64,000 nt of DNA from a phage. The position numbers were made by a program, and so were the translations under genes. The DNA lies in sequence record OZ346228.1. One strand, given 5' to 3'. Positions 3,134-26,275 of the stretch are shown piece by piece (the first letter of the stretch is position 1; each line of letters begins with the position of its first letter). Under the pieces are notes generated by a model. It saw nothing but the letters and a program-made list of their open reading frames with translations. It was not told the origin of the DNA and made no database searches.

Positions 3134-4174
3134 ATGTCAAAACCTAGTTTTCCATTAGAGATTTGGGCAGAGGAGGATCAGGTTCTGCCTAACACCCACA
3201 GACAGAACAGGCTACGCCCGATCGATGATTTGTGGAGAAAAGGTTGGGATCTTGGTCAAAAGCCATCCTGTGAAGAACTTAACTATATTTTCAATATGCT
3301 CGGAACTTGGGCAAAATACATTGCTGACGAGCAGATCCCCGCTCAAGAAGGCCGTTATCTGGTACGTGATAATAACTTGAGCGATCTTTTGAACATCCCT
3401 GTTGCCCGTAGAAACCTTGGGATTATCACTAAGGAAGAGGCAGACGCCAGGTATGTAAAAGTTACAGGTGATACAATGACAGGCCCCTTGGGGTTGCAAC
3501 GTATCAACTTTAAAGCTGCCGAGACAGATAAGGCTTGGATAGAGACAACTATTGGCCCAGATAAGACAACTCTCGACTTTGGGTTAAGTGATAATACCGG
3601 GTCGTTTGATGATGGTGGTACATCTACAGTGGATGCGTTTCGTTGGAGATTCCAGCCAACTCAGCCGGATATTAATCCAGAGTTCACTTTGATGTACCTT
3701 AACGCGATCACGGCTAATCGTGCGCTGTTGAAAGTGGTAGGCAATGTTGAAGTTGTCGATAACATGAGGTGCAATAACCTTACTATCAGCAATACAGCAA
3801 CATTCACCAACTGTAATGTGGCTAGTCAGTTGACGGCTGGGTCAGTATATGTTAATGGTGGTGCAAGTTGTGACAGTATGGTTGTAAGAAGCCAGCACTG
3901 TGTTGTCGGTAACAGAAATGTGGTGCGCTCCGTGAATGGAGTGACGGCTAACGGTAACGGTGATGTAACGATCACTATCCCGCAGACAGGTGTGCAAGAC
4001 ATCAGAATCGGTGCAAGACTTGTGGACGGCGTTTCTGAATCTCCAATCCGCAACGGCTACGTTGTCACAGGCTGGCATTTCGGTGACAAAAAAGAGATGC
4101 GTGGTTCAACCTACTGGGCAGGACCCTTACAAAAACTTGTAAATGGTCAATGGATCACTGTTAATTATGCATAG
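3134..4174 (+). CDS. tail fibre protein (paralog 1)
   Basis: 346 aa; GDTMTG-type fibre motif (VKVTGDTMTGPLGL); N- and C-termini conserved with ORF 5184-6230 (C-terminal QKLVNGQWITVNYA); followed by a Tfa-like chaperone. Confidence 0.7.
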   Translation: MSKPSFPLEIWAEEDQVLPNTHRQNRLRPIDDLWRKGWDLGQKPSCEELNYIFNMLGTWAKYIADEQIPAQEGRYLVRDNNLSDLLNIPVARRNLGIITKEEADARYVKVTGDTMTGPLGLQRINFKAAETDKAWIETTIGPDKTTLDFGLSDNTGSFDDGGTSTVDAFRWRFQPTQPDINPEFTLMYLNAITANRALLKVVGNVEVVDNMRCNNLTISNTATFTNCNVASQLTAGSVYVNGGASCDSMVVRSQHCVVGNRNVVRSVNGVTANGNGDVTITIPQTGVQDIRIGARLVDGVSESPIRNGYVVTGWHFGDKKEMRGSTYWAGPLQKLVNGQWITVNYA

Positions 4175-4188
4175 ATCGGAGGACTAGC

Positions 4189-4773
4189 ATGAAAATACTT
4201 CAAGAGTTTAAACTTTACCAACCAGGATCTGGCGAATACCACTCCAACAAGGAAACCAAGGAGCTGACCCCTCAAGAGGTAGAGGATTACACCGCATACA
4301 CTGGGTATTTTTTACGTAATGATGATGGTGATTGGTATGTGCAGTCACGAACATTACGACAAGAAAATCCAGGGTGTATCTTCCTACTTGTTGACGAGAA
4401 GGGAATTCTTAAGACATCTACAGAAGAACCTGATGCCTTATGGCCTGCTCCAGGTCTTCGTGTGGTTATCGCCAAAAAAGAAGAGGTACCAGAAAACATT
4501 ATGCTTCACCACGACGCTTTGCGTTTAGTTGGTGATGAATTTGTCACAGACAATGAATTCTTTGTTCAACAGGCAGAGGGTGTCATAGAGACAGAACTTG
4601 CTTGGGCTACTGCTAGAATTGGTGCCTATCAAGACATGATTGACCTTGAATATGATCTTACTGATGACCAGAAACGTAACATCAGAGATTTGAAAATGTA
4701 CAGGGTAAAACTTCTTGAAATAGATACATCTAAAGCCCCTGACATTTTCTTCCCAGAGCGACCTACCCTCTAA
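4189..4773 (+). CDS. tail fibre assembly protein (lambda Tfa / P2 G-like)
   Basis: 194 aa; C-terminal KMYRVKLLEIDTSKAPDIFFP matches the conserved Tfa C-terminus ([21 protein letters not shown] in lambda); GGAGG RBS. Confidence 0.75.
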   Translation: MKILQEFKLYQPGSGEYHSNKETKELTPQEVEDYTAYTGYFLRNDDGDWYVQSRTLRQENPGCIFLLVDEKGILKTSTEEPDALWPAPGLRVVIAKKEEVPENIMLHHDALRLVGDEFVTDNEFFVQQAEGVIETELAWATARIGAYQDMIDLEYDLTDDQKRNIRDLKMYRVKLLEIDTSKAPDIFFPERPTL

Positions 4774-4784
4774 GAGGAGGTGTT

Positions 4785-5099
4785 GTGGAGTTGGATTTGG
4801 CGGCATTGTACGGTATCTGCATGGGTACCGTTGTCCCGATCTGTGTATGGGCTTTCAACCAGTGGCACACCAAATGGAAAGACATTTCCAAGAGGTTGGA
4901 TGAGCTGGAGAAAGACCTCATCTTAGTGAAAAACAGTATGGTTACAAAAGATAAACTTGATTCCGTTATAGAGACCCGGTTAAGCAAGCTAGAGGCCGAT
5001 ATTAACGACCTTAAGCAGGATGTCAGGACAGATGTCTCCGGCATCAGAGCCGATGTACAAAAGATTTTGCACATGCTCGTAGAGCATAGTAAAAGGTAA
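4785..5099 (+). CDS. hypothetical protein, N-terminal hydrophobic segment plus coiled coil
   Basis: 104 aa, probable GTG start after GAGGAGG; hydrophobic N-terminus and heptad-rich C-terminal half. Confidence 0.45.
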   Translation: MELDLAALYGICMGTVVPICVWAFNQWHTKWKDISKRLDELEKDLILVKNSMVTKDKLDSVIETRLSKLEADINDLKQDVRTDVSGIRADVQKILHMLVEHSKR

Positions 5100-5183
5100 A
5101 CAAAGGTCAGAACGGAAAGGACTCCTCTTGCATTTTGTTCCCTAAAGTGTTAAAATAGTCCTAAGGAATTTTCTCAGGAGAAC

Positions 5184-6230
5184 GTGATGACTAAACCAGT
5201 TATCCCTCTTGATATTTGGGCCAATCAGGATGTTGTGCTTGAAAATACGGGAGAGTTGAATAAGTCTCAACCAAAAAAAGAAGAGAGATTGAAAGGTTGG
5301 GATATGACACAAAGAGTGGCATGTGAAGTTGTTAACTTTGAACTTCACATGCTTTCTGCGTGGTTAAAGCATTTAACAGAAGATGTTGTCCCAGGATGGG
5401 ATAATAGATTCTTAAGGGTCACTAATAATCTAGCAGACGTTCCAGACAAAGCTGCTGCACGTCAAGTTCTCAATGTATACTCGCCTGAAGAAATGGACGA
5501 TCTGTATGTTGACAAGTCTGGAGACATAATGACTCAGACTCAAACTTTAGGCCTTCAAAGAATCGAGTTTGCATCTGCGTCAACAGACAATGCGGCAATA
5601 TATACCACCATAACTCCAGACAAGACGACGATGGACTTCTGGATTATGGACAACATCGGTGGTGCTGACGGCACAGACCTTGATGATCCTTCTCACCAAA
5701 TAGACGGGTTCCGTTGGAGATTTCAACCTTCTGGTGGGCAGCCTGTGTTTTCGGCTATGAAGCTCAATGCTATAACTGCCAACCGTGCAAGACTGGCTAT
5801 CCAAGGAAATCTTGAATGCAACGATGCAAAAAGTTCCTCTGCAAATGCCAATGCGGTCACGATACCAAGAGCCACTGTTAACGGACAACAATCCTGCGGA
5901 AGCGCTCAAATAGGTGGAAGAGTTGATTGTAACGATGAAACCGTTAGAGGCCAATATGCAACCGTTGGTGGAAGAAACGTGGTCCGCAGGGTAAACGGTA
6001 ACAGCGCAGACGGTAGTGGTAACCTTACTGTCCCTATGCCCAGTAGAGGGGTTGACGATGTAAGGATAGCGAACCGTTTCAAAACCACCTACAGAGAGTC
6101 AAGGGTCTACCCTGGACATGTGATGTGCTCTGGTAACTACGCTTATAAACACCCTTATCAAGGTGATTACTGGACAGGTGCTATCCAAAAACTTGTAAAC
6201 GGTCAATGGATCACTATATCTTATGCTTAA
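5184..6230 (+). CDS. tail fibre protein (paralog 2)
   Basis: 348 aa; shares N-terminus (PLDIWANQD, KGWD) and C-terminus (QKLVNGQWITISYA) with 3134-4174; middle region divergent; KSGDIMT motif. Confidence 0.7.
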   Translation: MMTKPVIPLDIWANQDVVLENTGELNKSQPKKEERLKGWDMTQRVACEVVNFELHMLSAWLKHLTEDVVPGWDNRFLRVTNNLADVPDKAAARQVLNVYSPEEMDDLYVDKSGDIMTQTQTLGLQRIEFASASTDNAAIYTTITPDKTTMDFWIMDNIGGADGTDLDDPSHQIDGFRWRFQPSGGQPVFSAMKLNAITANRARLAIQGNLECNDAKSSSANANAVTIPRATVNGQQSCGSAQIGGRVDCNDETVRGQYATVGGRNVVRRVNGNSADGSGNLTVPMPSRGVDDVRIANRFKTTYRESRVYPGHVMCSGNYAYKHPYQGDYWTGAIQKLVNGQWITISYA

Positions 6231-8311: not shown

Positions 8312-11300
8312 ATGCTTCCAATCCCTTTGCTAAAACTTGGTCGTCATTTCCTCGATAAGAGGGGTGGAATTAAGGAACTTGCTGTTCTGTCATACCCAAT
8401 AGACAACAGTGATGGTACAAGCAACACAGTATCCTATGTAAATAGCTTAGCTATACTTTTTGATGATGGTCAGCTTAATATTACTGGCTATAACAAGTTC
8501 GGAGAGTGCCGCACTGGGGATCGTAGCCCTATAAACTATCCGAGCGAAACAGCCTGGAATGTTGATCATGTGTGGAGAGCAGACCGCGCGTTTGTGATCC
8601 GGACTTTTGATAACCAGTTTTTCTACATCGGCTGCACTGCAGGTCTTATCGGATCCACTGCGGCAGGCGGTAATGATGTTTGCGTAAACGAGTGGACACC
8701 ACTCCCAGAGCAGATTGTTAAAGGATTGCACCTTGACACCCACCCAGAACGCCTTATTGAGGTGATGGGCGGTATTAACAACACTGTCTGGGTTATTGCA
8801 GAGGCAGAAGGTACTGGCATACTTAACCTGTATGGATCTGGTAACAACACCTACGGATCTTTGCATGTAGATAAAAATCAGCATGCAACCCCTGTAAAGA
8901 TTGGTGAGACATCGGAAAATCCTGAAACAGGCCCTTGGAAAAACCCAAGCATCAACTGTGAGGTGCATGACAACTCTGTTATTTTCGGTGGTCCTAGGGG
9001 TTTCTGGATTGCTGGATACGACTTTCTGAGAAATAACAGTAGAAACGACCTTGTTTGGCCTCCTGTGCAGATTACTCGTAACGATTTGAGGGGCATTCCT
9101 GCAGATGAGGAGTGGAAAGGGTTTATGTGTGGTCCTAACGGGGCAGTAATTGCTACACAGAGGATGCATAGACCCGATGACCAGCAGCTTGTTAACGTAT
9201 TTTATGGTCAAAACATTTGGGGAGATGATACATGGCGGGAACTGAATATCACCTACACCCATGAGGTAATGATGGCTCGTGGGTACGGCACAAGTGGCAT
9301 TTTCTTCAATAATGGCACTAAGCAGTATCGTGGGTTCTCTCGCAACTTATGTAATGATATTGGTGCACAATCTGCAAACAATAGTCCTAGGGCCGATTTT
9401 ATCCACTATCAAGCTCTTGCTACAGCTAAATATGTTGAGCAACGCCTGCCAGTCAGCTGGACAGAGAGTGTTTATTTCCAAGGCATCCACAGAGAAGGTT
9501 TCTTAGGGACCTTTACTGTTGTTAATGGTAAACTTTGGTGGTCAGGTATCCCAAGGGGAAGTTTTACAGGCTCTAATAACCTGTTTGGCGGCAGACTTAA
9601 TAGTCAGGGGTTCACAGAGGTTCCTGAGAATTGGTATAAAAATGTCCCAGTAGACAGTTGGGGCGTTGATGATATTTTCGACGTTAATGGTGTTAGCAGT
9701 GTTAGCAATATCTACATTGGTGACACGGTCAAGATGAAATTGAAGCCTCAGCCAGAGGGAGCTACGTTCATCATTGACAAGATTGAACTGGTGAATGCTG
9801 CAGGTACGGTTGTTACAGATGCAAATTACCAATTCTCCACCAACTGGAACCACGGCGGGGCCAACGAAGTTGTTGTTACCCAGTATAACAGAAATGTTAA
9901 CAGACGTGGCCTGTACTCTGTAAAAATAACCTATCATGACAAGCATGGCACAGGCAGAACTCACACGACAAGGACTTTGAACTGGAACACCATAGTTCCT
10001 GCGTATCCGTCCAACGGCAAGTGGCATACCGTTGGTAGAAACAAGCAGTTCCATGTTAACGATACTGTATACTTTGGGCTGAATGGGACCCAGCCTGCAG
10101 TAGAAGGGGATACATCGTATATGGTCAGACTCCACAGAATGGATGCTGGATCAGTCACTTATGATGTGACCCAAGAGATCTACGATCAAAGACGCGCCAC
10201 GTATGACAATATTGTGAAAACACAAGCCTTGTGGGAGTTCAATCCTAATGGCAAGGGTGGTAAAATGTTGCAGGTTAATGAGCAGAACGGAACGTCGTTG
10301 ACTGTTCACGAACACCCAGACCCTTGGCCTGATCCTGGAAAACCTCACCCGGGAGCTCGTACACTGAAAATTGTCAGCCATGATGCAGGATATTTCGGAA
10401 TACGCTGGGAAGCTACAGTAAGATATGTCGACGGGACAACAAACAACATAGGGATTACACTTGGCGGCACTAGTGAAGATAGCTCGCTGAAAATTGCCTA
10501 CACGCCCAGAGGTATCTCTATTGATAATATGGATGTTGTTCGCAATGGTTACGGCGATGTGAATGTCAAAGTTACTCTTGGCGAACATCTTGGTGGGGAA
10601 AGGATCATCATGTATGCCTTTGATCATGATCCACGCACCAATGGAACTTATGCAAATCAGGCATGGAGTTACCTGATAAATGCACCTGAGCCGAATACTA
10701 AAGAGTTCTACTATGGCATGAAGCGAGATGTGTGCAAGAAAACAGGAACACATGACTGGATTGCTATCTGCGTTAAAGATGAGCGCACAGCTTGGGATGA
10801 GCCTGTTAACAGATGGTTCATAGGTATTCCTACCAGAAGTGATAAGTATGTCGCAGAATATATTGTATGCATGGGCGGTACCAACCTAAACATGTGTTGG
10901 AACGAAGATGTAAACAAATACTCTGATTATGACTATATGAGGGATTACTCTTGTAATTTGTGGTTTAACCAAACTACAGGTTACCCTCCAAGACAGGCGA
11001 GAGTAAACCCTGCAATCTTCACAGACACGCAGGTTTTCTTGACAAAACAGGCCAACGAGGTTCAGACCTTCAAGAATAAATACGATCCTAACAAGTGGTT
11101 CTACAACTGTTACGGCGCATTTTTCTGGGGACCTGGTGAGTTACCTGGTGGTGGATCTTGCTTGAATGAGGCAACTTACGCAAGTGACTACATCATGGGG
11201 CAGGTCAAGAAGTATAAGATAATCCCCGGTCCTGAGACTTTGGGCAATGCCGTTGACCCTTATATCATCATGACTGCACTGAGATCAAACATGGATGGGA

Positions 11301-13948
11301 CATCCATGTCCATGCAAATTCCGGTAACAAACGGATACAAACGTGTTGTGATGATCATTAAGTGCGACCTGATAGGTAAACAAGTTCTTGCAGAAAACGG
11401 GACATCCACACATCCTTTTGAGATCGCTCTGCACTATCAGTTTGCTGACTCACCTTTTGCAGGGGATAAGAGAATATCTGATACAGACGCACAGCGTTGT
11501 AAGAAAGTATTGTTGGGTGCAGGTTGGTGGTGGTATGAGTTTGATTTAACAGACAAATTCACCGACACGTCTAAAGTTGTAACAGGACTTCGTCTAGACC
11601 TTGGCGAGAACATGCACAAAGCTGTTTGTGATGGCACCTATGGTGACCCTACAATATACCTAAAATATGTTTCTTTTGAGCATCCGGAAGATGTTGTCTA
11701 CGGTCCAAAACTGAGATTGTTTGGCAGCTGGATTGCAAAAGATAGGGTAGGCATGGGTAAGAAGGTAAGAGGGTTCTTGGTTGATGCAGGAACAGAAGAC
11801 ATGCTGGTTAATGCAGTATGGCCTGAATTACCTGGGACTCAGTGGGACAACTCAGCCAAATCTATAAACTGGTTTAACATTCATAGGGCCATGTGGACCA
11901 CTAACTGCTACTTGTGGAGAGAGCTTAACGATCAGGCCTTTGGATTCAGCGAGGGTAGAAGGATGGCGATCATTTGCTGGACAACACTGCAAAGATGTTA
12001 TGACCATGACTATGAGATTGGGGGCAGGGCATGGAAAAATATCAGGGATAGAATCATAACCAATTTTGCAGACGACAACGGTGGTGGAGCACATAACTTT
12101 GGCACAAGCCGACTCATCCATTTGAACGGATCCTCAGCCTACAAGAAAGAAGGTTACTCTGGGTCTATGATCGAGCGGGGTCTGGTGAAAGATGCTCGCG
12201 TATTGATGGGCCAGCAACTTGCTGCCGCAGTAGGTCCCAGCGCAGTGCAGTCGGTTAAACCAGCGTGGTTCGATATTCCATTGTGGTCACCCGGAACACC
12301 GGGAACTGCTGCAATCAACCCTACCACTGGGGATCTGGAAATCTCCTGGGAAGACCTGAAGCAGGTCGGTGGTTGGGACAAAACAGGGTATCAGGTTCAA
12401 TGGTGGAGGGCTGACGGATCTTTAGCCGCTGATGAGTTTGTTAAGGACAATTTCTACACTATGTCCTCTGCAAAAGCACAGCAATTATTTGGTCAGGCAA
12501 CTCCGTCAACGATCACCATGTCTATGTGCTGTAAAGACAACAGGACTGGAGCTTTGGGGCCAAGGGTTGCTAAAGTTTTCTCAGGTATTAAATGGAATCT
12601 ACCTGTCCAAAGTATTTCATGGAAGCAAATAGGTGATAACAAGCTGCTGGTTACCCCTGCCTGTCAGTTCAACGCAACTCTTAACGTTGATCCTGCTGTT
12701 GCGGCAAACTCAGCTAAAGCTTCTGACTTCTCTGTGTCTAACACTGCTATGGCAGATGTGAGGAAGATTGACACGCTGAACGCCAGAATTACCTGTAAAA
12801 ACACTTATGGCACATTCCAAATCATCAACAACTTCACAGATGCTGATTCTAAGGTAGTGAGGACAGCAAGCCAGACTCTGAGTTTAGGAACTCTGGCCTA
12901 TGCGGCCCTGATCACCGAACAGTCGGCAACACTCCAAGGAGGTGGTGTAGGCAAGTCCATTACAACACCTGTGTGGAAGCCAAATGAGTGGGTTGTGTTT
13001 GATTTGACTGTGGACTTCTCCAGCGATAATAACTGGACATGGGTAAGGAATTGTTTGTCACAGTTGATGGGCGGTCCAAGCTCCGTTAGTGATAGTCACG
13101 ACTCTACTGACCCGAGTGTGTTCCAGGTAGGTAAAACTCACCCAGAGACTGGAGAAACGTTGCCTGACAGGAAGTATGCTTTGGTTTGCATCTCTTACGG
13201 GAAGGCAGATGTCGCCTTCTCAGGGACACACACTTATAACGGAACCTACAACTTCTCAAGGAAGTATAGTCTCAAAGCAGGGAACATTATAGACGAGGTT
13301 GGTGCGCTGTATAATCCGGGCAACGGCATAGGGATTGTTGGTGGTAAACTGCAGATGCAGGAACCTTCTATTACCCCTTCCAACGTATCCGGGATTAGAA
13401 AGACTTGGGAAAGTAGTAATACCAACATTGCAACAGTGGATGCCACCACAGGACTGGTAACATTTAAAGCTACTGGGAATGTCACCATAAAGTTTGTAGT
13501 TACTGATGATGTAGGGCGCAAAACGTCTTCAACATCTTTTACTGTCAAACAGATGGCACCACAGTGGAGAATGTGGATAGGTACAGCAACAAACGGGGCA
13601 TACCCTAATCCGTCAGGTACTTCTGGTATGAAGACTTTCTCTACAAGCAAACCGATGGAGTACGGCAGCGGTCCTAAGGTAGGGCAGATGGTGTACTTTG
13701 GTGCGTATATTCCTGAAATTATAGGGCTTCCTAGAAGTCAGCTTCAGTTGCTGTTTGGGGCTGGTGTTGACGATCTTGCCACTTTCGGGTATAGCGACAA
13801 CATCGAGGCTGCAAGGAGTTCAGGATGGGTAGGGTTCAGAATGGAGTCTGGAAAGGAAGGCAGGATTCTAGGGACAGCCTCTATAGGTGTTATGTTCCCT
13901 GGTGACCAGCAGTATCGTCTAGAAGCCTACGCAACCTTTTCTCGTTAA
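8312..13948 (+). CDS. large virion-associated protein with C-terminal Big_2-like Ig domain
   Basis: 1878-aa ORF; residues near the C-terminus (IATVDATTGLVTFKATGNVTIKFVVTD) resemble a bacterial Ig-like group 2 domain; strong terminator follows. Confidence 0.6.
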   Translation: MLPIPLLKLGRHFLDKRGGIKELAVLSYPIDNSDGTSNTVSYVNSLAILFDDGQLNITGYNKFGECRTGDRSPINYPSETAWNVDHVWRADRAFVIRTFDNQFFYIGCTAGLIGSTAAGGNDVCVNEWTPLPEQIVKGLHLDTHPERLIEVMGGINNTVWVIAEAEGTGILNLYGSGNNTYGSLHVDKNQHATPVKIGETSENPETGPWKNPSINCEVHDNSVIFGGPRGFWIAGYDFLRNNSRNDLVWPPVQITRNDLRGIPADEEWKGFMCGPNGAVIATQRMHRPDDQQLVNVFYGQNIWGDDTWRELNITYTHEVMMARGYGTSGIFFNNGTKQYRGFSRNLCNDIGAQSANNSPRADFIHYQALATAKYVEQRLPVSWTESVYFQGIHREGFLGTFTVVNGKLWWSGIPRGSFTGSNNLFGGRLNSQGFTEVPENWYKNVPVDSWGVDDIFDVNGVSSVSNIYIGDTVKMKLKPQPEGATFIIDKIELVNAAGTVVTDANYQFSTNWNHGGANEVVVTQYNRNVNRRGLYSVKITYHDKHGTGRTHTTRTLNWNTIVPAYPSNGKWHTVGRNKQFHVNDTVYFGLNGTQPAVEGDTSYMVRLHRMDAGSVTYDVTQEIYDQRRATYDNIVKTQALWEFNPNGKGGKMLQVNEQNGTSLTVHEHPDPWPDPGKPHPGARTLKIVSHDAGYFGIRWEATVRYVDGTTNNIGITLGGTSEDSSLKIAYTPRGISIDNMDVVRNGYGDVNVKVTLGEHLGGERIIMYAFDHDPRTNGTYANQAWSYLINAPEPNTKEFYYGMKRDVCKKTGTHDWIAICVKDERTAWDEPVNRWFIGIPTRSDKYVAEYIVCMGGTNLNMCWNEDVNKYSDYDYMRDYSCNLWFNQTTGYPPRQARVNPAIFTDTQVFLTKQANEVQTFKNKYDPNKWFYNCYGAFFWGPGELPGGGSCLNEATYASDYIMGQVKKYKIIPGPETLGNAVDPYIIMTALRSNMDGTSMSMQIPVTNGYKRVVMIIKCDLIGKQVLAENGTSTHPFEIALHYQFADSPFAGDKRISDTDAQRCKKVLLGAGWWWYEFDLTDKFTDTSKVVTGLRLDLGENMHKAVCDGTYGDPTIYLKYVSFEHPEDVVYGPKLRLFGSWIAKDRVGMGKKVRGFLVDAGTEDMLVNAVWPELPGTQWDNSAKSINWFNIHRAMWTTNCYLWRELNDQAFGFSEGRRMAIICWTTLQRCYDHDYEIGGRAWKNIRDRIITNFADDNGGGAHNFGTSRLIHLNGSSAYKKEGYSGSMIERGLVKDARVLMGQQLAAAVGPSAVQSVKPAWFDIPLWSPGTPGTAAINPTTGDLEISWEDLKQVGGWDKTGYQVQWWRADGSLAADEFVKDNFYTMSSAKAQQLFGQATPSTITMSMCCKDNRTGALGPRVAKVFSGIKWNLPVQSISWKQIGDNKLLVTPACQFNATLNVDPAVAANSAKASDFSVSNTAMADVRKIDTLNARITCKNTYGTFQIINNFTDADSKVVRTASQTLSLGTLAYAALITEQSATLQGGGVGKSITTPVWKPNEWVVFDLTVDFSSDNNWTWVRNCLSQLMGGPSSVSDSHDSTDPSVFQVGKTHPETGETLPDRKYALVCISYGKADVAFSGTHTYNGTYNFSRKYSLKAGNIIDEVGALYNPGNGIGIVGGKLQMQEPSITPSNVSGIRKTWESSNTNIATVDATTGLVTFKATGNVTIKFVVTDDVGRKTSSTSFTVKQMAPQWRMWIGTATNGAYPNPSGTSGMKTFSTSKPMEYGSGPKVGQMVYFGAYIPEIIGLPRSQLQLLFGAGVDDLATFGYSDNIEAARSSGWVGFRMESGKEGRILGTASIGVMFPGDQQYRLEAYATFSR

Positions 13949-14768: not shown

Positions 14769-15149
14769 TTATGACACTTTGACATAGCGCTCTGACAAAG
14801 CTGGGAAGCCAAAAGTAGTGCCTATACTACCATAGGCTATCCACCATTGGAGTTCATCGTGACACCATTTTCCGATCAGGAAGGTGCTGGGATAGCGGGT
14901 CAGTATTTTGGCATAAGCTTTAGGATCTGCATCTTCTGGGATAATGATGCTTGGAATATCTTTGTTATGACCACAGCAGCAGTTTAGCGTTTTCAAACCT
15001 GCTGCCCACAAACTCATGATAGGCTTAGCCATACACTTATCAAGGCACACACGTTTTTTGCCGTCACGAAGATTTTTAGGCACATCAACGATAACATTTG
15101 GATGCTTGGCACCTTTTACTTTCCAATTATAGGATTTACACTTGCACAT
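14769..15149 (-). CDS. hypothetical Cys-rich protein
   Basis: 126-aa ORF with several Cys clusters (CKCK, CCCGH). Confidence 0.45.
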   Translation of the reverse strand: MCKCKSYNWKVKGAKHPNVIVDVPKNLRDGKKRVCLDKCMAKPIMSLWAAGLKTLNCCCGHNKDIPSIIIPEDADPKAYAKILTRYPSTFLIGKWCHDELQWWIAYGSIGTTFGFPALSERYVKVS

Positions 15150-15846: not shown

Positions 15847-16118
15847 ACCTTCTCGTTGATAAATTTACGGGCGGTTTGGTGAGTTGTTTCTGCTGTCTTC
15901 AGAATGATATTAATTTTATCGTCAAGATCATTCATCTCGGCAGTTAATTCAGGAATCTCTCCGGCATGCATGGTGAAATCATACATAGACATGCCCAAGA
16001 TCTCATTGATGCGGCGGTTGCATTCTGCAGCACGCTGGTTCATTTTCCAAGCTAACACCAAAGCCTCCTGCGTAGCCTCTAGTGCAAAATCTAATACGTC
16101 GGCCTCTTCTTTCGTCAT
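15843..16118 (-). CDS. hypothetical protein
   Basis: 91-aa ORF overlapping the downstream gene start by 4 nt. Confidence 0.45.
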   Translation of the reverse strand: MTKEEADVLDFALEATQEALVLAWKMNQRAAECNRRINEILGMSMYDFTMHAGEIPELTAEMNDLDDKINIILKTAETTHQTARKFINEKV

Positions 16119-16175
16119 CTTAGTCTCTCCTGTTGTATTGTTGGTAGGTGTATGAATACCTTATAACTCACCTTT

Positions 16176-16742
16176 TTATTCAAACTGCAATAGTAAGTCC
16201 ACCACCGCGCTAGGTCTGTCAACAAATTCCCCAGGTCCACATGCCCACAGAGGGTATCCGTCTACATACCGCCAAATCCAACCTGCAGTGTGGAGTTCGA
16301 GCAGGGCAGTACCGTCCTTACTGTCAACCACTCTTTCCCACAGTGTCGGGCAGCGAAGCTTGAGGATCGGATCCCCTCCCTTATACCCATCCATGTAGAT
16401 ACCCATTGCAAAGTTCAGCATCATCTTTTTGTGCACTGATCTTTTACTGAGGGTACTCATCACTTCCTCTTTGTGAATGTTTGTAAGCTTCTCCTTGGCT
16501 ACCCGCAGATCGTTGCAACCATTGTTCAGCAGATCTTCCAGACACTTGATCCGAAGGTCGTGAATGTCTTTGTCGTGTACCGTTGGCACAGGGTCGTAGC
16601 GGTATAGCACTGTTGATACAAGGTTGCTCGGGTGTGGGTCTGACAGCAACCCATAACCCCAATACTCTTCTGTATCTGAAAGGACAAGACACCCAATGTC
16701 TCTGTCAAGCTTTCCTGTGTTGTAAGCCACATTGACCGCCAT
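16176..16742 (-). CDS. hypothetical protein
   Basis: 188-aa ORF in the minus-strand operon; no motif recognised. Confidence 0.5.
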   Translation of the reverse strand: MAVNVAYNTGKLDRDIGCLVLSDTEEYWGYGLLSDPHPSNLVSTVLYRYDPVPTVHDKDIHDLRIKCLEDLLNNGCNDLRVAKEKLTNIHKEEVMSTLSKRSVHKKMMLNFAMGIYMDGYKGGDPILKLRCPTLWERVVDSKDGTALLELHTAGWIWRYVDGYPLWACGPGEFVDRPSAVVDLLLQFE

Positions 16743-16744
16743 GA

Positions 16745-16990
16745 CTATAGCTCCACTAGCAAAGTGCTTTCAAAGTGACGTTCATGCAGACCGTTGTAAG
16801 GGACCACTTCCACAACGCCATCACGGACATATGGGGCCATCATGGTGGTATAATCTCCAAACGGGTTGGTATTGTCACTAACCACAACCACCTTCTGCCC
16901 TTCCTTGGCAGAGTGCCAAATAGATCTGCACTTCATCAGGTGTTCGAGAGCCCCAGGTAAAATTTTGTTACGTTCTTTACGGGTCTTCAT
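16745..16990 (-). CDS. hypothetical protein
   Basis: 81-aa ORF, tight spacing with neighbours. Confidence 0.45.
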   Translation of the reverse strand: MKTRKERNKILPGALEHLMKCRSIWHSAKEGQKVVVVSDNTNPFGDYTTMMAPYVRDGVVEVVPYNGLHERHFESTLLVEL

Positions 16991-17436
16991 AACAGGTATA
17001 GCTCCTTATGAAAGTGATCTTTTAATTTCTCACTGAGAAACTTCTTGATACCTTCCTCTAAAGTGTTTTCGATGTAGTCCAGCTTAACTGCTTCGATGGA
17101 CATATCATAGATCGCCAGCTCTAAGCTGTCAAGTCCCATCATAGCATGAACCATAAGATTTTCATCTTCAGATACATTCAGGGGACTTCCTATAACATCT
17201 GGAGGCAGAATAGTTTCCCAATTATTCTGGGTGGTAGTTCTCCCTCCCTCTACTTTACGGCGCAGTTCGAATGTGTTCTTAGTGTAGAACACTTCATAAG
17301 AAACGATACGACTGTCGCTCTCGTAATAAACGAAGTTCAGGTAGGAGCCTAGCCGCAGTCGGCAAACTTCTACCCCAAACCATTGTTTCTTATAAGAATT
17401 CAGGCTAATGCTGTCGCATTCACGTTTGCTCAACAC
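16987..17436 (-). CDS. hypothetical protein
   Basis: 149-aa ORF, 4-nt overlap with downstream gene. Confidence 0.45.
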   Translation of the reverse strand: MLSKRECDSISLNSYKKQWFGVEVCRLRLGSYLNFVYYESDSRIVSYEVFYTKNTFELRRKVEGGRTTTQNNWETILPPDVIGSPLNVSEDENLMVHAMMGLDSLELAIYDMSIEAVKLDYIENTLEEGIKKFLSEKLKDHFHKELYLL

Positions 17437-17452
17437 GGCTCTCTCCTTTTTG

Positions 17453-17689
17453 TTAATCTTCGTAAATCAGGATTTCTGCTTTAGGTTTTCGTGCTTTCAT
17501 GTCCAGCTCTATCCAGTGCACCATAGCTGTTTCAAGAAAAACAGCCTGGATGCATCCGTCCTCAGCAGCGTGTCCTAGCAGCATAACAAGATCTTCTCCT
17601 TCGTCATCTGCACCACGAACATACAGAATCTCCCCGGGTTCAAAATCTTTAACAACCTGATTGTTGGATAATTTACGAATTTTCGCCAT
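17453..17689 (-). CDS. small protein, member of tandem paralog array
   Basis: 78 aa; shares a G.(I/V)V core and overall pattern with the three 87-aa ORFs upstream. Confidence 0.5.
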   Translation of the reverse strand: MAKIRKLSNNQVVKDFEPGEILYVRGADDEGEDLVMLLGHAAEDGCIQAVFLETAMVHWIELDMKARKPKAEILIYED

Positions 17690-17690
17690 A

Positions 17691-17954
17691 TTAGAAACCC
17701 TCTAAAAAGCTCTTGTAGAAAATAATTTCAGTATCTACACCAGTCACGATCTTATCGTTCCTGATTTCATCTGTAAGGTAGGTGTCAAAACGCAGAACCT
17801 GTGTGGTGTTGTCACACATCCACTCAGCTGTGACCATTGCGAAAATCTTAGCATCTTCATTATCTGGTGTGAATGTTACCACCTCACCGCACTTAAACTT
17901 TTCGATAGGCTGAGTGTTAGCTTTCGGTTCTGCGATAGTGATTTTTGTGGTCAT
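17691..17954 (-). CDS. small protein, member of tandem paralog array
   Basis: 87 aa; KFKCGEVVTF core; same length as two neighbours. Confidence 0.5.
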   Translation of the reverse strand: MTTKITIAEPKANTQPIEKFKCGEVVTFTPDNEDAKIFAMVTAEWMCDNTTQVLRFDTYLTDEIRNDKIVTGVDTEIIFYKSFLEGF

Positions 17955-18217
17955 TATTCTCCTCCTTCTTTTGAATAGCTTGTCTCTCCAAGGATGGTAA
18001 TTTTGGTGTCAAGCTCTGTAACTTTCATGTTTGGCGGCAGATCGTACAACTCATTATTTTCTAAATCGAACCCCCACACACAATGTTCTCCTGTTTTGAC
18101 AATCATAACTATGTTTTGAATGCCGTCTCCGTCGCAACTTACCACAGTCCCACACGGAAAGCTGTCTGCACGCTTTTTGTTCTTCACCTTAGAATTGAAT
18201 ACAATGCTGGTAGCCAT
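17954..18217 (-). CDS. small protein, member of tandem paralog array
   Basis: 87 aa; MATSIVFNSKVKNKK and GTVV core; start overlaps upstream stop. Confidence 0.5.
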   Translation of the reverse strand: MATSIVFNSKVKNKKRADSFPCGTVVSCDGDGIQNIVMIVKTGEHCVWGFDLENNELYDLPPNMKVTELDTKITILGETSYSKEGGE

Positions 18218-18480
18218 TATTGTTCCTCCACCATAACTTCGCCAATAATTTCTATGCAGGCATCCATTTCTGTAACAACCAAACTGTGAGGTAGTTCTAC
18301 AAACACCTTTCTGAACAGGTCAAATACCCCAACATATATGTTTGCAGGATGTGATTTTACAACAAGTGCTGTATTCACATCCCCAAGTTCATCAACAAAC
18401 ATCACCACAGTGCCTGGAGCTACTGAGGACAGATACTTCTTAGTTTTACGGTTTGATGCAAATTTTAACTCTGTTGCCAT
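18217..18480 (-). CDS. small protein, member of tandem paralog array
   Basis: 87 aa; MATELKFASNRKTKK and GTVV core; FDL motif shared with 17954-18217. Confidence 0.5.
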   Translation of the reverse strand: MATELKFASNRKTKKYLSSVAPGTVVMFVDELGDVNTALVVKSHPANIYVGVFDLFRKVFVELPHSLVVTEMDACIEIIGEVMVEEQ

Positions 18481-18495
18481 AAATAACCTCCTCTC

Positions 18496-19977
18496 TTACT
18501 TAGCGTACTCGATTAATTCCACAGTTTTACCAAAGCTCGGGATATAATTTTTATTATACCCCTCAGTGAGGACCCATAGAGTATCGTACTTTTTCCACTT
18601 GTTGTCAACAACCTTTTGTTCAAAGTTATGCTCAAAGTATAGGTCGGTCAGGACGATGACATCTTTTGCATTAGGTATGTTGGCATCCAGATACTCGAAC
18701 ACGCAAGCAGCTGTTGTGCCCCATGTTGAGTGGACCTCATAGTTGATCATCTCGTCTATGTTGCCGCGAGTGTATACTTTAACCTCTCCAACCTCAGTTG
18801 ACCAACAGAACATTGTAACCTTAAACTCTTTATACAGATTGCACAATCCGGTGATTTCATTGAACATTTTCTTTAAAGTTCTTTGAGAGATCGAGCCAGA
18901 AACGTCTAAAGCCACCACAATATCTATAGTGTTTTCCGGATTACGACCAGGAACAATAACGTGCTGGTTCTTGTTTATAGCCCCAACTTTTCGCATTGTG
19001 CTGGTCAAAGACCCAGATCGGCGACCAGGTTTTCTGTAGGTCAGTTCGGCCTTTCTTTTAGACAACATACGTTGCTTAATGATGTCTATATAGTTGATTA
19101 CAGGCTTACCTCTGTTCTTGACAAACTCACGCACCGCCTCAGGGCAACGGCCTCCGGACGCTTGCATTGCTGCCTCCAGCATATCACCAGAGTCCTGCAT
19201 GGCCTGATCTTTATCAGATTGGCTGATTACAGGTTGTGGCTGATCATACCCCATAGCCTTTCCAAGATTATCACTGGTGCCACCGTTCCCACTCATGTGA
19301 TCATCGGTTTGTCGCTTATCACTTTGAGAGTTCTCACCTTTACCGTTCTTACTTTTACCGTTATTCTGATCTCTTTGCTTATCAAGAACTGCATAAACGT
19401 TCTCAGCAATCCATCCATGAAACTTCATGTCGCAGTAGCAGCTGGCTAAGAAGCCAAAAGGCTTACCTTTCATGAACGTAGTGCTTTTCCCCTTCGGGAA
19501 GAAAACACAAGGGGGTTTGCTAAAGTCAACCACAAGGCCTGTGTTGATAACGTGATCACAAGCAATATTGAACAGTTCCGGCTCAAAGCTTTTACCACGG
19601 ACTAGGTGATCACAGATAATATGCCCCACCTCATGTGACAGAAGGAAGGCCACCTCTTTCACAGATTTTGGGGAATAGAAAACTTCAGCCATCTCAAACT
19701 GCTCGTCAGTTAGAGAAGCCTTAAGAATAGCCTTGCGCTCATCAGCCAATCCCATAATGAACTCAGGACTGTAATAGATGCGTTTATGGTCGGTTGCCAT
19801 GGTGGAGCACCATGTGTGGTTTTCTACGAACTGCAACCCTGACAGTAGTGTGCCATAAAACGGCAGCTTTTCAAGGAGATACATACGTGCAGCCTGCAAC
19901 ATTCTCAGGGCATCATCTTTCTGCGAGGCAATGATTTCTGAACTTCTGCTATCCATTAAAACTCCAGAAGGGGCCAT
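18496..19977 (-). CDS. VWA-domain protein with N-terminal HExxH metallopeptidase-like domain
   Basis: 493 aa; HExxH (LSHEVGHIICDH) in N-terminal half; MIDAS-type DxSGS (VVALDVSGSI) in C-terminal half. Confidence 0.75.
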   Translation of the reverse strand: MAPSGVLMDSRSSEIIASQKDDALRMLQAARMYLLEKLPFYGTLLSGLQFVENHTWCSTMATDHKRIYYSPEFIMGLADERKAILKASLTDEQFEMAEVFYSPKSVKEVAFLLSHEVGHIICDHLVRGKSFEPELFNIACDHVINTGLVVDFSKPPCVFFPKGKSTTFMKGKPFGFLASCYCDMKFHGWIAENVYAVLDKQRDQNNGKSKNGKGENSQSDKRQTDDHMSGNGGTSDNLGKAMGYDQPQPVISQSDKDQAMQDSGDMLEAAMQASGGRCPEAVREFVKNRGKPVINYIDIIKQRMLSKRKAELTYRKPGRRSGSLTSTMRKVGAINKNQHVIVPGRNPENTIDIVVALDVSGSISQRTLKKMFNEITGLCNLYKEFKVTMFCWSTEVGEVKVYTRGNIDEMINYEVHSTWGTTAACVFEYLDANIPNAKDVIVLTDLYFEHNFEQKVVDNKWKKYDTLWVLTEGYNKNYIPSFGKTVELIEYAK

Positions 19978-19989
19978 CGGCCCCTGTCA

Positions 19990-21033
19990 TTATTTAACGT
20001 GTTTGAAAATACCTGCCAACTCGGTCATTGTCATGCGGGTGGTCTTCATAAGATCTGTCATAGCTTTCTCCATAATTGGAGATACTACCATAAAGTTTCC
20101 TTTAGTGAAACCTTTATTCCAGTCGGTCACCAACAGGGGTTTAAGTCCAGCTCCAAGACGTTCACCAGTTAAAGCACAGCATTTGCGAATATACGAACTC
20201 TTAAATTGGCTGAACGACAGATCAACTTTCATACCTACATCGTAGAACGTTTGACAATAGAAAGTGTAAGCTTTGGCAATCTCAACATCATCAGGTAGTG
20301 CAGGAACCTCTTCTGTAAGCTCCTCTTCGACCTCCTGAGTCTCTTTTTCCTCTTCATGCACCTGTTGCGTCATTTCTTCAATCTCTTCTGTGATAGGCTC
20401 GTTTACAATGTCGGAAATGTGCTTCTTGGGTGCACGATAAGTAACTTTAGACATCGGTAGCATATCTTCCTCCTCTTCTTCGTCAAAGAGTGCTAGTTTA
20501 TCCTCTTCCGTTCCATATTGCAAGATGAAATCTTCAAAAGTATAATCACCTTTCAATTTCTCCATACGCTCTTCGCTCAGGTGGAGCATCATCTGCTGGA
20601 CAATTTTTCGATCAGTTTCGTCTTTAATCAAGACTGCAGTCTTTTTATCTACCAGACAGTCCTTTAGAGAGTTGCATCTCAATCCCACCACACAACAGTT
20701 ATCAACCGCATAAGGACCTTCATCATCTATCCGCTCCAGAGATGGGTAGAAAGGATTCCCCAGCCCGTTTTCATCTGTGTGCATGTCAAAAGGTATAAGG
20801 GTATAGTCGCATACTCCATCTCCTAAAAGTTTTTTACCAAATAGGAGGTATTCTTCCCATGACAGGTCGAACTCTATATCTCGTTTCCGTGCGTTATTCT
20901 GTTTGCGTCTATATTTTTTGAGCAAGCGCTCTAACTCTTCTGGTGTATAATATTTTTCAAGATTCATGAGTCGTCTCTCGTGCTCTGTAAGTGAAGAAAT
21001 CGTATCAATTGTCTCAACAGATGTCAACATCAA
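19990..21033 (-). CDS. hypothetical protein with degenerate HNH-like motif and acidic linker
   Basis: 347 aa; PSLERIDDEGPYAVDNCCVVGLRCN resembles the SIDRID...GY...N...C..CN nuclease-like motif; Glu-rich linker; internal SD plus ATG at residue 194 sits inside a 29-bp inverted repeat. Confidence 0.5.
   Translation of the reverse strand: MMLTSVETIDTISSLTEHERRLMNLEKYYTPEELERLLKKYRRKQNNARKRDIEFDLSWEEYLLFGKKLLGDGVCDYTLIPFDMHTDENGLGNPFYPSLERIDDEGPYAVDNCCVVGLRCNSLKDCLVDKKTAVLIKDETDRKIVQQMMLHLSEERMEKLKGDYTFEDFILQYGTEEDKLALFDEEEEEDMLPMSKVTYRAPKKHISDIVNEPITEEIEEMTQQVHEEEKETQEVEEELTEEVPALPDDVEIAKAYTFYCQTFYDVGMKVDLSFSQFKSSYIRKCCALTGERLGAGLKPLLVTDWNKGFTKGNFMVVSPIMEKAMTDLMKTTRMTMTELAGIFKHVK
20431..20459 (-). 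repeat. 29-bp inverted-repeat copy spanning an internal ATG of the 347-aa ORF
   Basis: Reverse complement equals TACCGATGTCTAAAGTTACTTATCGTGCA at 22293-22321; perfect 29/29 match. Confidence 0.7.
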
Positions 21034-25232: not shown

Positions 25233-25733
25233 GTGAAAATTAAGATCTTTGCTATTATTTTGAGCGCACTTTTATCGCTGCCTGTTGTTGCAGCACCAAA
25301 ACAAAAAGTATATCATACTTGCAAGCCCTCAGATACTAAGGAAAACATTCTGGCATGCAATATCTACAGGGAGGCTAGAGGGGATGGCACGATGGGTATG
25401 CTGGCATCAGGGTTTGCCACACTAAACAGGAAATCTCACCCCAAATACCCAGACACTATAAGAAAGATTGTCTACCAACCTAACCAGTTTTCGTGGACAA
25501 ACCACGGCAAAACTTTTAAGGTGACAGAAAAAGATTCATGGGATCACGCTAAAAGTCTTGCAAAGATGCTTCTAAAGGTCTATAATAACAACCATGTTGC
25601 ATACATGGCTATGGACATAACAGGTGGAGCAACACACTACCATACAACCAAAGTACGACCGAAATGGGCAAAAAAGATGCAGAGGACAGCTCAATTCGGG
25701 AGTCATATCTACTACAAGGAGCGCAATAAATGA
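25233..25733 (+). CDS. SleB-like cell wall hydrolase with signal peptide (endolysin candidate)
   Basis: 166 aa; N-terminal signal-like segment (KIFAIILSALLSLPVVAAP); CNIYREARGDG and QFSW motifs typical of SleB/Hydrolase_2 family; GTG start after GGAG. Confidence 0.7.
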   Translation: MKIKIFAIILSALLSLPVVAAPKQKVYHTCKPSDTKENILACNIYREARGDGTMGMLASGFATLNRKSHPKYPDTIRKIVYQPNQFSWTNHGKTFKVTEKDSWDHAKSLAKMLLKVYNNNHVAYMAMDITGGATHYHTTKVRPKWAKKMQRTAQFGSHIYYKERNK

Positions 25734-26275
25734 TTGTAAACAGTAATGAAACTAAAGCAGTACTAACCGGAAATATGGAGGTCACCAGGGGCTCAATTTC
25801 TCTGAACAAAGAGACTTTTGGGCTAATCATTAAAGGGATTTACGAAGATAAGGTGCTGGCAAGCTGCCGTGAACCAATCTTCAATGCTGTGGACTCCCAT
25901 GTTGAGTCTGGACGGGGTGATGTACCGATCATCATTCACTCTCCTACAGACCTTGAACCATACTTCTTTGTGCAGGACGTTGGATTGGGCATGTCGGAAG
26001 AGATGGTCCGCAACACTTTCATGAACCTCGGGGAGTCAACCAAGCGCAACAGCAACGCTCTGGTAGGTAATAAAGGTGTAGGTTCAAAGGCCCCGTTCAG
26101 CATGGTGGACACTTTCGATGTGATCAGTGTGCCATACCAACACAACAGTGCTAAGTGCCGTGCATGCCGCTACGAAATAGTAGCAGCACCGGAATCACGC
26201 AAAGATGGCGATCCGATTGAATACGTAGTTGACCGTGATGGTAACATCATCGACATTATCTACGAGGAGGCGTAA
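25730..26275 (+). CDS. stand-alone GHKL (Bergerat-fold) ATPase domain protein
   Basis: 181 aa; N box EPIFNAVDSH, G1 box VQDVGLGMS, G2 box GNKGVGSKAPF in canonical order; resembles Hsp90/MutL-type ATPase N-domain. Confidence 0.6.
   Translation: MIVNSNETKAVLTGNMEVTRGSISLNKETFGLIIKGIYEDKVLASCREPIFNAVDSHVESGRGDVPIIIHSPTDLEPYFFVQDVGLGMSEEMVRNTFMNLGESTKRNSNALVGNKGVGSKAPFSMVDTFDVISVPYQHNSAKCRACRYEIVAAPESRKDGDPIEYVVDRDGNIIDIIYEEA

Follow-up and report, generated by a model that had tools for sequence, protein, structure and literature searches.

Large lytic phages carry runs of short, co-transcribed and often dispensable early genes, which diversify by duplication and by the exchange of cassettes. 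These tandem small-protein families, early or accessory in function, have no homology to the four genes described here, two of which (paralogs C and D) are unusually conserved rather than fast-evolving. In phage rV5, the corresponding genes lie within a leftward unit with E. coli-type promoters (genes 11–26) and outside the late structural block, which comprises genes 27–66 (PMC3606486). Neither these genes nor any duplication is mentioned in the rV5 paper; array proteins are absent from the virion proteins that it names from mass spectrometry, as are gp14–17 from its supplements (PMC3606486). Family databases do cover the same proteins, with full-length matches in PHROG (E 1e-41 to 1e-62) to three families of 'unknown function' (Table 1), and with A and B also in pVOG VOG5597. 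These resources split the array into three unrelated families, whereas the profile tests reported below unite all four proteins.

In predicted fold, the array resembles the Tudor domains of TDRD2 (3fdr), SMN (1g5v) and PHF19, the SH3-like domain of uL2, PWWP and KOW domains, and the C-terminal Tudor domain of UvrD/PcrA. These SH3-like and Tudor domains are parts of larger proteins and have no sequence similarity to the array, which consists of standalone acidic phage proteins. Neither the aromatic cage nor the KOW glycine motif is conserved across the array paralogs.

Organization of the array and its surroundings

The sequence analyzed is a stretch of 64,000 nucleotides of phage DNA (record OZ346228.1), referred to here as the window. 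An earlier note on this DNA described four consecutive ORFs of 87, 87, 87 and 78 aa between positions 17453 and 18480. All four are present, on the minus strand, and are transcribed from 18480 towards 17453 (Table 1).

Table 1. Coordinates of the array genes and neighboring features in the window.
Feature	Position	Strand	Length	Remarks
Paralog A	18217..18480	-	87 aa	naswa_83; phrog_10698; first in array; pI 5.0
Shine-Dalgarno sequence of paralog A (GAGGAGG)	18487-18493	-		
Paralog B	17954..18217	-	87 aa	naswa_82; phrog_10698
Paralog C	17691..17954	-	87 aa	naswa_81; phrog_12861; rV5 ORF15; bas54_0053
Paralog D	17453..17689	-	78 aa	naswa_80; phrog_12046; rV5 ORF16; bas54_0052
Exchangeable head cassette (almost all of A+B)	17966..18465	-		from blastn of rV5, MaxBurger and L016
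DUF2201 metallopeptidase + VWA-like gene	18496..19977	-	493 aa	Pfam PF13203 (4e-28), PF09967 (6e-11)
149-aa gene, rV5 gp17 homolog	16987..17436	-	149 aa	downstream of array; phrog_6790 'tail protein'
Srd-like putative anti-sigma factor	19990..21033	-		first gene of the leftward operon; PHROG 3118, 4592, 1400

Paralog A starts 15 nt past the stop codon of the DUF2201 gene. At the A/B junction (TAATG, 18215–18219), the ATG of B and the TAA of A have base 18217 in common; the B/C junction has a one-base overlap as well (TAATG, 17952–17956), and at the C/D junction (TAA-T-ATG, 17687–17693) a single nucleotide separates the stop from the start codon. A GGAGG-type Shine-Dalgarno sequence is located 6–9 nt upstream of every start codon in the array. 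Considering these overlapping or abutting codons and the Shine-Dalgarno sequences, coupled translation across the array is plausible, as judged from the junctions. No fifth paralog was found in the window, and a promoter and terminator consensus scan inside the array gave nothing convincing.

Positions 16000–20000 of the window match Escherichia phage naswa (MN850595, Vequintavirus murica) at ~100%, and the same region is matched at 90% or more by 119 related records. All four array ORFs are annotated as 'hypothetical protein' in naswa, and likewise in Murica, where each has an annotated ribosome-binding site. Over the ~19 kb compared, the window differs from the naswa record by 13 substitutions, one inserted G at 10598 and a 2622-bp deletion. 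Within the array, the substitution at 17613 makes residue 26 of paralog D a Gly (Asp in most orthologs), and that at 18146 is synonymous, in paralog B. With the extra G, a 1878-aa tail-fibre ORF with Ig-like/intimin domains (8312–13948) is continuous, as in Murica; the naswa record splits it into two CDSs, suggesting a frameshift or sequencing error there. The deletion (junction 26102–26132) has removed most of rIIA and rIIB and leaves a 181-aa in-frame fusion ORF (25730–26275) flanked by a 31-bp repeat. No record among 120 from related phages extends across this junction, and the deletion is therefore unique to this sequence. Among the related records, sixteen bear the name 'Campylobacter phage' and list Campylobacter jejuni as the host (MG0656xx). 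Their sequences are almost the same as those of E. coli Vequintavirus genomes, with MG065635 sharing 99.7% identity over window positions 16000–20000; their Campylobacter host labels look doubtful.

The leftward unit that contains the array diverges from an operon carrying a MoxR ATPase. The DUF2201 gene, immediately upstream of the array, is called 'HNH endonuclease', 'putative anti-sigma factor' or 'metallopeptidase' in public records. Pfam backs only the metallopeptidase and VWA-like assignments, and 'HNH endonuclease' is a PHROG label that has apparently been propagated. A perfect GC-rich hairpin, AGGGGCCATCGGCCCCT, is located at 19969–19985 between the Srd-like and DUF2201 genes. It is annotated as a terminator in Murica and may thus attenuate transcription into the array. 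Our literature search found no paper linking DUF2201, MoxR and phage, and no Vequintavirus transcriptome with expression timing.

Paralogy and predicted fold of the four proteins

The claim that these ORFs form a tandem array of diverged paralogs was correct. We compared the Smith-Waterman score of each pair with the scores of 1000 composition-preserving shuffles. The pairs A–B (z 18.7) and C–D (z 6.9) have scores that no shuffle reached, and B–C (z 4.4; reached by 4 of 1000 shuffles) and B–D (z 2.6; 25 of 1000) also exceed the controls. The remaining pairs, A–C (z 1.4; 102 of 1000) and A–D (z 0.1; 415 of 1000), are not significant by this measure. These two pairs are linked by leave-group-out profiles, which were searched against the complete set of 733 six-frame ORFs from the window. 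An HMM of the A/B clade detected C at E=4e-6 and D at 2e-3, ranking right after A and B themselves, with the best decoy at 0.48. In the same set of ORFs, a profile of A, B and C detected D at E 4.5e-6, and a profile of A, B and D detected C at E 2.4e-9. In addition, hhalign gave 9e-10 for A–B and 1.7e-4 for B–C. The four proteins thus group as one paralogous family when measured against both shuffled sequences and real decoy ORFs.

The features that the earlier note regarded as common to the array are less general. Its shared motifs reduce to one glycine (G23 in A) and one isoleucine (I76), which together with M1 are the only residues invariant across the paralogs. The 'FDL' segment is confined to A and B, and a common 'ELD' segment had to be dropped, as the 'ELD' of D is neither aligned nor homologous with the 'TELD' of B. 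All four paralogs are acidic, with pI values of 4.5–5.0. The proposed basic N-terminus stands out only in A and B, whose first 20 residues carry a charge of +4 and the remainder −8; the same segment of C and D has +1.

Structure prediction was carried out for A and D. The AlphaFold (AF2) models (pLDDT 81) of both proteins adopt an SH3/Tudor-like small β-barrel with the same strand order, the two models being not fully independent because both were built from alignments that include all paralogs. As predicted, they conform to the SH3-like/Tudor class of small barrels, defined by five strongly bent antiparallel strands and ~60 residues, and every paralog is predicted to form a five-stranded barrel of this type and size. 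An extra N-terminal β-hairpin is predicted in A and is missing in D.

No catalytic or ligand-cage residues are kept across the paralogs. Scans of Pfam, NCBIfam and PADLOC and a PDB profile search returned no meaningful match for the four proteins; PADLOC gave no family at E up to 1 for any of them, and no phage inhibitor was returned among the PDB sequence and fold search matches. Several better known families of small barrels were considered and rejected. A methyl-lysine or methyl-arginine reader of the Tudor 'royal family' would need a conserved aromatic cage of 3–4 residues, and the paralogs have no set of conserved aromatic columns, nor is there a Tudor domain among the Pfam matches. For KOW domains, as in NusG/Spt5, uL24 and eS4, Pfam gave no match up to an E of 1, and the PDB profile search left a single trace, eS4 (E=1.1). 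An Sm/Hfq-like assignment, which calls for an N-terminal α-helix ahead of Sm1/Sm2 motifs and for ring assembly, was likewise discarded, since no helix of at least four residues is predicted in A or D and no LSM or Hfq family is among the Pfam matches.

A Foldseek search of predicted viral structures (BFVD) returned many unannotated phage proteins of 70–90 aa (E 5e-4 to 2e-2, TM 0.55–0.7). Vibrio phage Thalassa A0A2H5BHC0, Serratia phage Hera A0A7T3N9D3 and N4 gp21 are similar to the array proteins in size and predicted fold, but no profile-level sequence relation was found between the BFVD matches and the array (hhalign E 0.068 for N4 gp21). N4 gp21 (74 aa; 2156–2380 in the N4 sequence, L013) is a weak structural match to A (E 0.023) and is encoded three genes upstream of the N4 MoxR-like ATPase gp24 and the VWA protein gp25. 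As gp21 has no sequence relation to the array, this proximity may be either a coincidence or a recurring association. PVP-SE1 gp217, an 81-aa ORF of the window (16745–16990) and N4 gp21 were rejected as family members, having no profile relation to the array.

Distribution, cassette exchange and selection

The family is nearly confined to Vequintavirus. A word-indexed protein search yielded 30 clusters, all from close Vequintavirus relatives. HMMER, run exhaustively over 1.84 billion representatives, gave 11 matches, in which P0031 and P0032 are the only genuine distant members; the long repeat proteins P0033 and P0034 match through multiple weak repeat stretches and were judged spurious. A scan of IMG/VR with the 149-aa neighbor found two loci only. 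P0032 is a single copy on a 123-kb metagenomic phage contig (L005), located between DUF2201 and a homolog of the 149-aa gene. P0031 is also a single copy (in L003), and adjoins a homolog of window ORF 14769–15149 rather than DUF2201. The 123-kb contig also has a TnpB-like gene (4119–5258; 379 aa; OrfB_IS605 and Cas12f1-like TNB domains), an insertion that separates the divergent operons and lies immediately upstream of the Srd-like gene.

Related phages carry 0, 1, 3 or 4 copies. Four copies are present in the window, Murica, phita32 and a more diverged lineage (L018–L020), and three in rV5 (ORF14, ORF15 and ORF16) and Bas54 (MaxBurger). The fetched DUF2201 loci of PVP-SE1, phiTE and A7_1 contain no family member, DUF2201 being present in all three. 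The array originated when a single-copy ancestor was duplicated in tandem.

The head of the array is exchangeable. In blastn comparisons of rV5, MaxBurger and L016 with the window, homology ends at 18466 and returns at 17965, while the flanks share 94–96% identity with the window in rV5 and MaxBurger and ~87% in L016. In place of A and B, rV5-type phages have one 85-aa gene, ORF14, without DNA similarity to the pair. The break in DNA homology between flanks of 94–96% identity indicates that A+B (~500 bp) and ORF14 (~230 bp) are alternative cassettes. The ORF14 type occurs in 74 phage records. With P0031 as the query, 50 records out of 118 gave nothing but matches below 60%, and those of them that are listed match at two places, the A+B type. 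A neighbor-joining tree of the family, with bootstrap values of 51–74%, is too weak to pick A or B as the ortholog of rV5 ORF14.

Within ortholog groups of close relatives, pN/pS is 0–0.17 for C, D and ORF14, 0.06–0.30 for A and 0.00–0.02 for B. Paralog C, which is 93–100% identical across Vequintavirus, has pS of up to 0.82 with pN of at most 0.046. These low ratios indicate that the array ORFs are real, constrained genes. The comparison of the window with the diverged four-copy lineage (L018) separates the array into two regimes. A (58% amino acid identity, pN 0.25, pN/pS 0.39) and B (63%, 0.24, 0.29) resemble the flanking proteins (55–82%, 0.12–0.30, 0.15–0.39), whereas C (97%, 0.019, 0.04) and D (94%, 0.027, 0.06) are far more conserved. 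A and B are thus exchangeable and evolve at their neighbors' pace. No other protein of the operon is as conserved as C and D, on which purifying selection is much stronger than on any gene nearby. The description of the paralogs as otherwise diverged therefore suits the fast-evolving, exchangeable A and B, but not C and D.

Dispensability in Bas54 and possible roles of the array

Transposon insertions were mapped in the HIDEN-SEQ preprint for the three-copy phage Bas54 (10.1101/2025.11.20.689424), the identity and gene order of which we checked. On K-12, the array genes are non-essential, with insertions at 17 of 17 TA sites in bas54_0054 (ORF14-type), 13 of 15 in bas54_0053 (C-type) and 12 of 12 in bas54_0052 (D-type) (10.1101/2025.11.20.689424). 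On a clinical isolate compared with K-12, the same three genes have non-significant log2 fold changes of +0.46, +0.33 and −1.32, respectively, as against −7.23 for MoxR (q=0), −2.20 for the DUF2201 ortholog (q=0.009) and −2.28 for the ortholog of the 149-aa gene (p=0.028, q=0.195), all from one condition in the sheet 'Data S6' of Extended Data Table 8, whose title, K-12 vs CFE303, disagrees with a command line that names a '311' library, so that the strain behind the values is ambiguous (10.1101/2025.11.20.689424). A later part of that file gives identical numbers. The authors report that MoxR has an anti-defence function directed at DS-28, a predicted system, and the 149-aa ortholog is non-essential on K-12 (10.1101/2025.11.20.689424). 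The 149-aa gene, being outside the structural block, non-essential and mildly depleted, may belong with MoxR and DUF2201. If redundancy among the paralogs is assumed, it could mask the phenotypes of single insertions. That C and D are so strongly conserved fits awkwardly with their being dispensable in the laboratory.

We favor, with a probability of about one half, a reading in which the paralogs are acidic, non-enzymatic accessory binding modules that arose by tandem duplication, are co-expressed early and provide a conditional benefit. The proteins would be produced together at similar levels early in infection and would bind host or phage macromolecules; because their net charge is negative, these partners are more likely to be proteins than nucleic acids. 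C and D would then engage conserved targets and A and B variable ones, with the benefit lying in host takeover, counter-defence or host range rather than in core replication. A role of the array in host takeover or anti-defence, as suggested at the outset, is plausible. It is consistent with the E. coli-type promoters, the Srd-like and DUF2201 neighbors, the lineage restriction, the variation in copy number and the A+B swap, and also with the reported anti-defence function of the neighboring MoxR and the depletion of DUF2201 in the same screen.

The proximity to DUF2201 could have a more direct meaning. The array directly follows DUF2201 in every examined Vequintavirus locus, as does the single copy in L005, MoxR is reported to be anti-defence in Bas54 with DUF2201 depleted on the same isolate, and N4 gp21, the weak structural match, is likewise encoded near MoxR-like ATPase and VWA genes. 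The paralogs might accordingly be adaptors, cofactors or decoy substrates of a MoxR AAA+/DUF2201 machine, one target per copy. We consider this unlikely: insertions in the array copies show no significant loss on the isolate that requires MoxR and DUF2201, among Vequintavirinae PVP-SE1 and phiTE have MoxR-related genes and, like A7_1, DUF2201 but no family member, the L003 copy adjoins another gene, and N4 gp21 has no sequence relation to the family. Slightly less probable again is a more specific version, in which the paralogs are interchangeable specificity adaptors or decoys for counter-defence by the MoxR/VWA-metallopeptidase pair, with C and D dedicated to conserved host targets and the A/B cassette serving for retargeting. 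If this were true, anti-defence by the array would be modular and protease-linked, and the A/B swap would redirect the MoxR/VWA-metallopeptidase pair to variable host immunity proteins.

Small β-barrels such as Sm/Hfq frequently oligomerize by strand pairing, and the array paralogs could similarly form one hetero-oligomeric complex, descended from a homo-oligomer of the single-copy ancestor, in which case they would work as a single machine rather than as four independent binders. Equal gene size and the plausible coupling of translation would favor matched stoichiometry, and single-, triple- and quadruple-copy states all exist in relatives. However, the A+B cassette is swapped for one gene while C and D remain unchanged, which is hard to reconcile with a complex of fixed stoichiometry; moreover, the predictions lack an N-terminal helix of the Sm type, and Pfam returned no Sm/LSM family. 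We rate such a complex as doubtful, on a par with the specificity adaptors.

The operon shared with the Srd-like gene and the extreme conservation seen in C and D, which a host target that is itself conserved would lead one to expect, would also be compatible with transcription modulators that dock onto host RNA polymerase in a Tudor-like manner, together with the Srd-like factor. The structural matches that point in this direction are generic for the fold and far down the list, and the genes are dispensable on K-12; this role appears more doubtful than the hetero-oligomer. Very improbable, finally, is a function as virion or assembly proteins, suggested by the 'tail protein' label of the downstream gene and by the virion-assembly role that Iyer et al. 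proposed for MoxR-VWA-peptidase pairs in jumbo phages (PMC7824862), as the proteins are missing from the rV5 virion proteins mentioned above, the late structural block does not include their genes, and Bas54 can form plaques without any one of them; this effectively excludes a structural role.

The array is genuine and its evolutionary pattern informative, yet it is a rather ordinary case, a member of a familiar class of small accessory phage proteins. It does not open a long-standing question, and the existing knockout data show no phenotype. What the analysis provides is one origin and one predicted fold for four 'hypothetical' genes found in ~120 sequenced rV5-like phages, a group considered for biocontrol of E. 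coli O157. The array adjoins a DUF2201 gene that was depleted in the very screen that identified MoxR as anti-defence. The combination of exchangeable A/B and ultra-conserved C/D makes this a sensible locus in which to seek conditional host-interaction functions.
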